Positions 42,096 to 42,407 of a stretch of 64,000 nucleotides of DNA are shown piece by piece. Each line of letters starts with the position of its first letter. The stretch's first letter is position 1. The stretch lies in the NCBI GenBank assembly GCA_026110335.1, contig GCA_026110335.1_3055.1; one strand, given 5' to 3'. The position numbers and the translations under genes are program-made. The DNA comes from a phage. Under the pieces are notes generated by a model. The model saw only the letters and a program-made list of their open reading frames with translations, was not told the origin of the DNA and did not search any database.

Positions 42096-42206
42096 TATAT
42101 TCTCTCATTTATTGCAGCAAAAAACGAATTATACAATTCTTCATCATATGTATTTGATAGTAATACTAACACGTTTTGCGATAAATATTAATTTAAAGGA
42201 GGACAT

Positions 42207-42407
42207 ATGGTACAAAAATTAATGGCACTTGTTAATGCCATAAAAGGTAATAAGAAACGTATAGCTTTTACTATTTCTGCTATGATAGGAATTTTACTTT
42301 GGAATTTTGTTTTATCGCCAGTTGCTATTGCTCATGGCGTTAGTATTCCAGTAGTTACTCTTGATACATTCGTAGATTTAGCATTTGCTTTAGTTGGGTT
42401 AATTTAA
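42207..42407 (+). CDS. hypothetical two-TM membrane micro-protein, plus strand
   Basis: 66 aa; AAGGAGG SD 4 nt before ATG; two hydrophobic helices; stop overlaps the gene 61 stop convergently. Confidence 0.5.
   Translation: MVQKLMALVNAIKGNKKRIAFTISAMIGILLWNFVLSPVAIAHGVSIPVVTLDTFVDLAFALVGLI

Follow-up and report, generated by a model that had tools for sequence, protein, structure and literature searches.

dam.1, a conserved predicted membrane microprotein gene convergent with primase gene 61 in T4-like phages

Background

What is a lone plus-strand open reading frame (ORF) doing in a region of a phage genome where the neighbouring genes are all read in the opposite direction? The question is raised by the 308 bp spacer that separates dam from gene 61 (DNA primase) in a T4-like (Tequatrovirus) genome, of which a stretch of 64,000 nucleotides was analysed (contig GCA_026110335.1_3055.1 of GenBank assembly GCA_026110335.1, hereafter the window). 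The spacer harbours a plus-strand ORF of 66 codons and no minus-strand ORF of 30 amino acids (aa) or more, and every substantial neighbouring ORF between ~39.8 and 45.2 kb lies on the minus strand. An initial annotation, made from the sequence alone, described this arrangement correctly, including the overlap between the stop codon of the ORF and that of the convergent gene 61 (Table 1). It further proposed that the ORF is an independently acquired accessory gene (holin-like, toxin-like or an exclusion factor) and gave no known counterpart at this position in T4.

These last two proposals do not hold. The ORF is the already annotated conserved hypothetical gene dam.1, and its window copy is very probably an ancestral Tevenvirinae gene of the late type which encodes a single-pass membrane microprotein, and not a strain-specific acquisition. 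The present analysis adds evidence that dam.1, judged by its substitution pattern, encodes a protein, that its promoter is conserved and of the late type, that its distribution makes it ancestral to the Tevenvirinae and that it is missing from the T4 RefSeq entry. The gene does not represent a new kind of system. It corresponds to a conserved, predicted membrane microprotein of the best-studied lytic phage and would be one of very few late-type genes inside the early replication cluster.

Results and discussion

The spacer ORF is the dam.1 gene of T4 and its relatives

The same ORF occupies this site in T4 (94-95% identity to the window copy), in T2 and in T6 (92% identity for both). It is named dam.1 in the T4T record HM137666 (T4Tp032, ADJ39749.1) and 'Dam.1' in the T6 record MH550421 (AXN58073.1), and it is the same gene as RB69ORF029w, VR7ORF033w and RB32ORF030w, none of which has an assigned function. 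That the initial annotation gave no T4 counterpart is probably due to the T4 RefSeq entry NC_000866.4, where nothing is annotated between dam (16846-17625) and gene 61 (17935-18963). The 66-codon ORF is intact in this unannotated interval (17626-17934; 3627-3935 of our locus L003). The T4 reference genome therefore has an annotation gap at dam.1, and omics studies based on the RefSeq gene list will miss the gene. The T4 and window copies share position, orientation, promoter, Shine-Dalgarno (SD) sequence and the stop overlap with gene 61. They differ by four residues and by the SD-ATG spacing, which is 6 nt in T4 and 4 nt in the window.

The window product (MVQKLMALVNAIKGNKKRIAFTISAMIGILLWNFVLSPVAIAHGVSIPVVTLDTFVDLAFALVGLI; 66 aa) matches phrog_2024, a family of unknown function, with E=8.1e-31, residues 2-66 being aligned on positions 1-65 of the 65-position profile. 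Distant family members likewise match phrog_2024. Two functional labels carried by orthologues were discarded. The 'Holin' label of the OE5505 orthologue (UniProt/BFVD) is unreviewed, and the 'putative head morphogenesis protein' label of the T6 RefSeq is a similarity-transfer note; neither has experimental backing. In that T6 entry (NC_054907; locus L001) the same label is given both to dam.1 (2516-2701) and to 61.1 (3704-3892), and small ORFs nearby carry 'terminase' or 'ferredoxin' notes. Such labels look unreliable.

dam.1 evolves as a protein-coding gene

Searches with tblastn retrieved the ORF from 693 phage records when the window protein was the query and from 759 with the VR7 orthologue, that is at least 759 in total. 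The ratio of non-synonymous to synonymous substitution rates (dN/dS) was calculated by the Nei-Gojobori method on 23 codon-aligned copies, and the values quoted are those of unsaturated pairs. They range from 0.08 to 0.41 (window vs T4, 0.16; window vs T6, 0.14; RB69 vs ZQ3, 0.10; RB69 vs NC-G, 0.08; IME523 vs P545, 0.18; VR7 vs CJ20, 0.41). In nearly all pairs substitutions are most frequent at the third codon position, then at the first and then at the second (45, 32 and 13, respectively, between the window and RB69). Moreover, start, stop and frame are maintained down to ~20% amino-acid identity. By these evolutionary signatures dam.1 is a genuine protein-coding gene under purifying selection.

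A conserved late-type promoter and a strong Shine-Dalgarno sequence

The initial annotation had pointed to a late-like element upstream of the ORF and to a very strong SD sequence, and both observations are borne out. The putative late promoter GATAAATA sits 19 nt before the ATG of dam.1. The SD sequence AAGGAGG occurs just twice in the 64 kb of the window, both strands considered, and the second occurrence (16904) serves the holin gene t. The signals of the two genes have nearly the same layout, GATAAATA-8 nt-AAGGAGG-4 nt-ATG for dam.1 and AATAAATA-7 nt-AAGGAGG-4 nt-ATG for t. This likeness is circumstantial evidence for similar expression and says nothing direct about function.

Both signals are conserved. 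GGAG(G) precedes every dam.1 homologue. In 12 of the 13 T4-like lineages, whose upstream sequences are otherwise unalignable, an exact ATAAATA core is located 12-22 nt before the start codon or, where two copies stand in tandem, before that of the leading copy. The complete box reads GATAAATA in T4, T2, the window and mg12, AATAAATA in T6 and RB69, CATAAATA in VR7, CJ20, mg10, mg11, K65 and NC-G, and is a perfect TATAAATA in IME523, P545 and Kosakonia 305, while SEA1 has the one-base variant TATTAAATA. No late box was found upstream of the non-T4-like homologue described below.

The dam.1 box thus agrees with the T4 late-promoter consensus with one deviation, at position -13. Of 50 late sites listed for T4, 32 are perfect, 9 have an A at -13 and most others show single deviations (PMC2988020). 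Relatives conserve the T of position -13 only poorly (PMC1524935), and this position is the least conserved of the late promoter (PMC1524935, PMC2988020). On the strength of the motif, GATAAATA is predicted to behave as a gp55-dependent late promoter.

The rarity of the core motif in the window is also informative. ATAAATA is found 11 times for 36.7 +/- 5.6 expected (3.3-fold depletion; all of 100 shuffled sequences contained more), as would be expected if spurious late promoters are selected against. Downstream of five of the 11 sites, within 18-34 nt, come the SD and ATG of a substantial ORF. One of these ORFs is dam.1 and the four others, judging by their products, are presumably the T4 late genes 34 (1290 aa), 36 (218 aa), holin t and soc. 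The six sites which head no substantial ORF are at 4759 (-), 12580 (+), 17036 (-), 19654 (-), 39426 (+) and 43800 (+), the latter being antisense within gene 61.2.

The product is predicted to span the membrane once

An AlphaFold2 model of the dam.1 product was obtained from a 14-sequence alignment (predicted local distance difference test score, pLDDT, 77.7). It contains three helices (residues 2-12, 16-42 and 52-63), of which the last comprises 12 residues. The N-terminal segment carries a net positive charge in all 13 family members analysed (+1 to +7) and, following the positive-inside rule, would be cytoplasmic. The adjacent long helix corresponds to a predicted transmembrane (TM) segment, in agreement with the single TM (21-41) predicted for RB69ORF029w by Nolan et al. 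2006 (PMC1524935, supplementary file 2). The most conserved residues gather at the end of this segment and immediately after it. Down to members of 20% identity, W32, P38, G44 and P48 do not vary, and N33 and A40 show a conservation of 90% or more. The acidic residue that follows P48 is D52 in the window and E in most other lineages.

The C-terminal tail is more heterogeneous. Across the family it measures 17-28 residues, its net charge lies between -3 and 0 and its mean hydropathy is 0.6-2.0. In the window it ends with ...FALVGLI and has a net charge of -2. The tail is hydrophobic in sequences of the T4 type, whereas in distant relatives it is only 17-18 residues long, less hydrophobic and includes charges. 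In the model the C-terminal helix does not have the length expected of a conserved second TM. Of the two hydrophobic helices announced in the initial annotation, the first thus stands as one robust TM span (~19-42) and the second is not clearly a TM. The best reading of the model is a single-pass inner-membrane protein (N-in/C-out) with a short interfacial or periplasmic helix.

Comparison with known families and structures adds little to this description. The protein has no match in Pfam or NCBIfam, none at E<=1 in PADLOC or in a profile search of the PDB, and a Foldseek search of BFVD returned nothing beyond its own family and noise.

Position, distribution and origin

In at least nine Tevenvirinae-type lineages dam.1 is the sole plus-strand gene nearby and runs towards the 3' end of the convergent gene 61. 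This layout is kept in Tequatro-, Mosig-, Gapriver-, Dhaka-, Kanagawa-, Gelderland- and Marfavirus and in Klebsiella phage K65, and it is identical in metagenomic T4-like contigs whose copies are only ~20-30% identical. The 4-nt overlap of the dam.1 and gene 61 features in the window also occurs in T4, T6, RB69, P545, Kosakonia 305 and a metagenome contig (L011). Elsewhere the two genes are separated by gaps of 2-19 nt, and in IME523 they overlap by 24 nt.

The other side of dam.1 is variable. Its left neighbour is dam in T4 and in the window, gene 56 in T6, RB69, VR7, ZQ3, NC-G, K65 and CJ20, and MazG in IME523. Hypothetical genes occupy this position in P545, SEA1 and OE5505, as does, in Kosakonia 305, a hypothetical gene preceded by a homing endonuclease. 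One of the left-side hypothetical genes at this junction encodes 186 aa. When the window is compared with OE5505 and with locus L020, similarity begins within ~4 nt upstream of GATAAATA, which implies that promoter, SD sequence and ORF have been kept as a single unit with hypervariable DNA directly to the left. The DNA on the left of the promoter (~42096-42176 in the window; upstream in L020 and L021; also in L001, L004, L007 and L024) is a swap site, and dam itself looks like a cassette inserted beside a fixed dam.1-61 unit.

dam.1 was not found in the Aeromonas, Acinetobacter and cyanophage T4-like relatives examined. Krischvirus and Slopekvirus also lack the gene and have a co-oriented gene 56 within 8-15 nt after gene 61. 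The family is small, since an exhaustive search with a hidden Markov model (HMM) among 1.84 billion cluster representatives yielded just 10 at E<1e-3. A single member was found outside T4-like genomes. This protein, P0075 (6001-6210 of locus L015; phrog_2024, E=6e-11), is encoded in a siphovirus-like metagenomic contig with no primase nearby. It is flanked by an endonuclease VII gene and a minor tail protein gene (phrog_1924) with a serine recombinase near, and has no lysis context.

The same position and orientation across genera indicate vertical inheritance within the Tevenvirinae rather than a strain-specific moron. Judged by this synteny, dam.1 is an ancestral Tevenvirinae gene, perhaps derived from a single acquisition at the base of the subfamily.

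Table 1. Coordinates of dam.1, its predicted signals and protein segments, and the other genes discussed (positions in the window)
Feature	Position	Strand	Remarks
Holin gene t	16915..17571	+	Signals at 16889-16917
dam	41316..42095	-	Left neighbour of dam.1
Variant T4 late promoter (predicted), GATAAATA	42180..42187	+	Consensus TATAAATA at -13 to -6; G at -13 here
Predicted late transcription start	42193 (+/-1 nt)	+	From the published -13 to -6 placement; leader ~14 nt
SD sequence, AAGGAGG	42196..42202	+	4 nt before ATG
dam.1 coding sequence, 66 aa (T4 dam.1 / RB69ORF029w / phrog_2024)	42207..42407	+	ORF call, PHROG match, dN/dS, T4T annotation
N-terminal amphipathic basic segment, residues 1-18	42207..42260	+	Net charge +5; AlphaFold2 helix 2-12; predicted cytoplasmic
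Terminator-like hairpin and T-run, ATGGCATTAACAAGTGCCAT then TAATTTTTGT	42222..42241	-	8 bp, 3 GC; inside dam.1 codons 6-12
Predicted TM helix, residues ~19-42	42261..42332	+	Kyte-Doolittle 19-residue maximum 2.0 at 23-41; AlphaFold2 helix 16-42
Core W32-N33-x4-P38-x-A40-x3-G44-x3-P48, then a mostly conserved acidic residue	42300..42350	+	Two family alignments
Short C-terminal hydrophobic/acidic helix, residues 52-66	42360..42404	+	AlphaFold2 helix 52-63
Interlocked convergent stops, TTTAAA	42403..42408	both	dam.1 TAA 42405-42407 (+), gene 61 stop 42406-42404 (-)
Gene 61 (DNA primase)	42404..43432	-	Convergent right neighbour of dam.1
sp (spackle)	44228..44521	-	~1.8 kb from dam.1

Proposed role

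Late in infection, RNA polymerase modified by gp55, gp33 and gp45 would initiate at GATAAATA, as the conservation of the motif suggests, and the short leader of the transcript would carry AAGGAGG. The 66-codon ORF would then be translated into the protein whose sequence bears the signature of purifying selection. Charge distribution, hydropathy and the AlphaFold2 model suggest that this protein enters the inner membrane, with its basic N-terminal helix in the cytoplasm, the W-N-x4-P-x-A-x3-G-x3-P core at the outer end of the TM and an acidic helix of ~15 residues at the periplasmic face. More speculatively, this small non-enzymatic protein may bind another envelope component in the late phase. 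The late transcript, for its part, would continue antisense into gene 61.

Our best single guess for the target is the lysis-timing machinery, on the grounds that the expression signals of dam.1 match those of holin gene t; taken by itself it is an unlikely one. The fuller proposal, in which dam.1 is expressed together with holin T and tunes lysis through a holin, lysis or lysis-inhibition component while its transcript silences gene 61, is quite improbable as a whole. If the lysis-tuning part were true, dam.1 would be a new player in a lysis system that ranks among the most intensively studied.

Several observations weigh against the mechanism outlined above, its lysis part included. Both T6 records (2501-2503 of locus L001; L033) have ATT where the other T-even copies start with ATG, and the T6 gene is annotated from Met6 (61 aa). 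Either translation starts at AUU or expression is lowered in the laboratory T6 lineage. Strong expression may therefore be dispensable, which argues against a strict requirement for dam.1. A TM hairpin is possible in the T4-type sequences, and a charged C-terminal domain of the kind usual in holins is missing. T4 lysis genetics is well populated (t, e, rI, rIII and the spanins), and we know of no r-type mutation mapped at dam.1. The literature that could be searched contained no paper on dam.1 or on its RB69 and VR7 ORF names, and searches on ribosome profiling and small proteins of T4, on late transcription starts missing from its annotation and on RNA antisense to gene 61 gave nothing on this ORF. 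Finally, the late box departs from the consensus by its G at -13, and the corresponding RB69 site is absent from the late promoters listed by an HMM scan in 2006.

Alternative explanations

A chance ORF in a non-coding spacer, conserved only for the terminator of gene 61 or for promoter signals of dam, would agree with the gap left empty in the T4 RefSeq annotation and with the terminator-like hairpin on the minus strand (Table 1). The substitution pattern, with dN/dS well below 1, and the retention of frame, start and stop down to ~20% identity exclude this explanation, which we consider practically negligible. The ORF is still present where dam is absent, and the hairpin, by eye, has no counterpart in RB69 or VR7, so that it was rejected as the cause of conservation. 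Searching Rfam with positions 41800-42700 gave only sub-threshold eukaryotic RNA noise. A strain-specific acquired moron, for instance a gene for a toxin or for superinfection exclusion, has in its favour the orientation opposite to that of the neighbours, the adjoining hypervariable junction, the absence from Krischvirus, Slopekvirus and the Aeromonas, Acinetobacter and cyanophage relatives, and the homologue in one unrelated phage contig; an ancient acquisition at the base of the Tevenvirinae would be compatible with these features. However, a recent or strain-specific event is refuted by the presence of the gene at the same site in T4, T2, T6, RB69, VR7 and, overall, at least 759 records. 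Promoter, SD sequence and ORF behave as one unit and the variable DNA begins directly upstream of the promoter. An exclusion or defence role does not fit well either: there is no PADLOC match at E<=1, and a late-type promoter does not suit T4-type exclusion proteins. The moron is therefore a very improbable explanation.

The two other alternatives concern what the gene does. The product may be a second holin or a protein that modulates the holin in lysis or lysis inhibition; it would build up late in the inner membrane and form or gate lesions there, or bind the single TM of holin T and so adjust the time of lysis. A small product with at least one predicted transmembrane domain (~19-42) would suit this role, as would its predicted late promoter, a promoter/SD layout near-identical to that of t and one of the only two AAGGAGG sites of the window. 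In contrast, the hydrophilic, highly charged C-terminus of class I/II holins is lacking and the basic patch is N-terminal. The gene lies between dam and gene 61 and adjoins neither e, t, rI, rIII nor the spanin genes, no holin profile of Pfam or NCBIfam was matched and the fold search gave its own family only; moreover, T6 tolerates an ATT start. T4 t is itself unlinked to e. A canonical holin was rejected on C-terminal charge, lysis-gene neighbourhood and family match, and the broader holin or modulator role is doubtful. Alternatively, the late promoter itself could be the main selected function and the peptide secondary. The RNA running into gene 61 would also pair with the spacer between 61 and dam in early transcripts and would shut off early replication genes late in infection. 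The convergence with gene 61 is indeed conserved in every T4-type lineage that has the ORF, and the downstream plus strand has no terminator-like site. Yet purifying selection acts on the amino-acid sequence, and the invariant W, P, G and P residues and the conserved strong SD sequence imply that the protein itself is selected. The phrog_2024 member of the non-T4-like contig has no primase nearby, and gene 61 of more distant T4-like phages does without a dam.1 element. An RNA-only function is, on balance, distinctly unlikely, and we retain a late-type membrane protein of ancestral origin as the preferred interpretation.

Comparison with known small membrane proteins

dam.1 shares with holin T a predicted late expression, a membrane location and the combination of a variant late promoter with AAGGAGG. 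However, T is a protein of 218 aa with a large periplasmic domain, whereas the dam.1 product has 66 aa. The small class I/II holins possess two to three transmembrane domains and a charged C-terminal tail, unlike dam.1 with its one robust TM, its N-terminal charge and its hydrophobic C-terminus. Neither holin T nor the small holins show sequence or profile similarity to dam.1.

Imm and Sp are also small T-even envelope proteins, and sp is located close to dam.1 (Table 1). They are early/middle T4 proteins acting against superinfecting phage. Their genes are on the minus strand, whereas dam.1 is read from the plus strand and follows a late-type promoter, and their sequences show no similarity to it. 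The type I toxins (Hok, TisB and Ldr-type) are of similar size and consist of a single hydrophobic helix. They differ from dam.1, a late-type gene of a lytic phage conserved across a subfamily, for which no cognate antisense small RNA (sRNA) locus is evident and which has no match in Pfam or, over 41800-42700, in Rfam. Transcripts that read through from gene 61 into dam are complementary to the ORF region, with no dedicated sRNA evident there.

Transcription around the convergent junction

No terminator-like site was found on the plus strand between 41900 and 43600, so that a late dam.1 transcript would run antisense into gene 61. This read-through is predicted from the sequence of the region. 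On the opposite strand, the hairpin within the first codons of dam.1 lies ~160 nt past the end of gene 61, where it might terminate the transcripts of this gene before they reach dam.

Degenerate copies, N-terminal subtypes and paralogues

An RB69-like, unannotated copy in ECCR664 (~1450-1650 of locus L006) carries a 1-nt frameshift in an A-run, which is either a sequencing error or the mark of a pseudogene.

The N-terminus of the family exists in two forms. Subtype A (M.KL..L..AIKGNKKR) is found in T4, RB69, VR7 and NC-G and subtype B (MGTLFYQIWKL...) in IME523, P545 and SEA1. Gaprivervirus and Dhakavirus have tandem A/B paralogues, in opposite orders. In VR7 (1495-1970 of locus L005) A is followed by B, and the latter is altered at its C-terminus, has no acidic residue and enters gene 61 by ~70 nt. 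CJ20 (690-830 of locus L026) retains only a remnant of B, whose second codon is a stop and which has an internal deletion. In NC-G (279-698 of locus L023) the order is promoter-B-A and B is frameshifted in a T-run. In all three two-copy genomes B is thus altered or decayed while A is intact, which points to functional equivalence of the two types, a single copy being sufficient.

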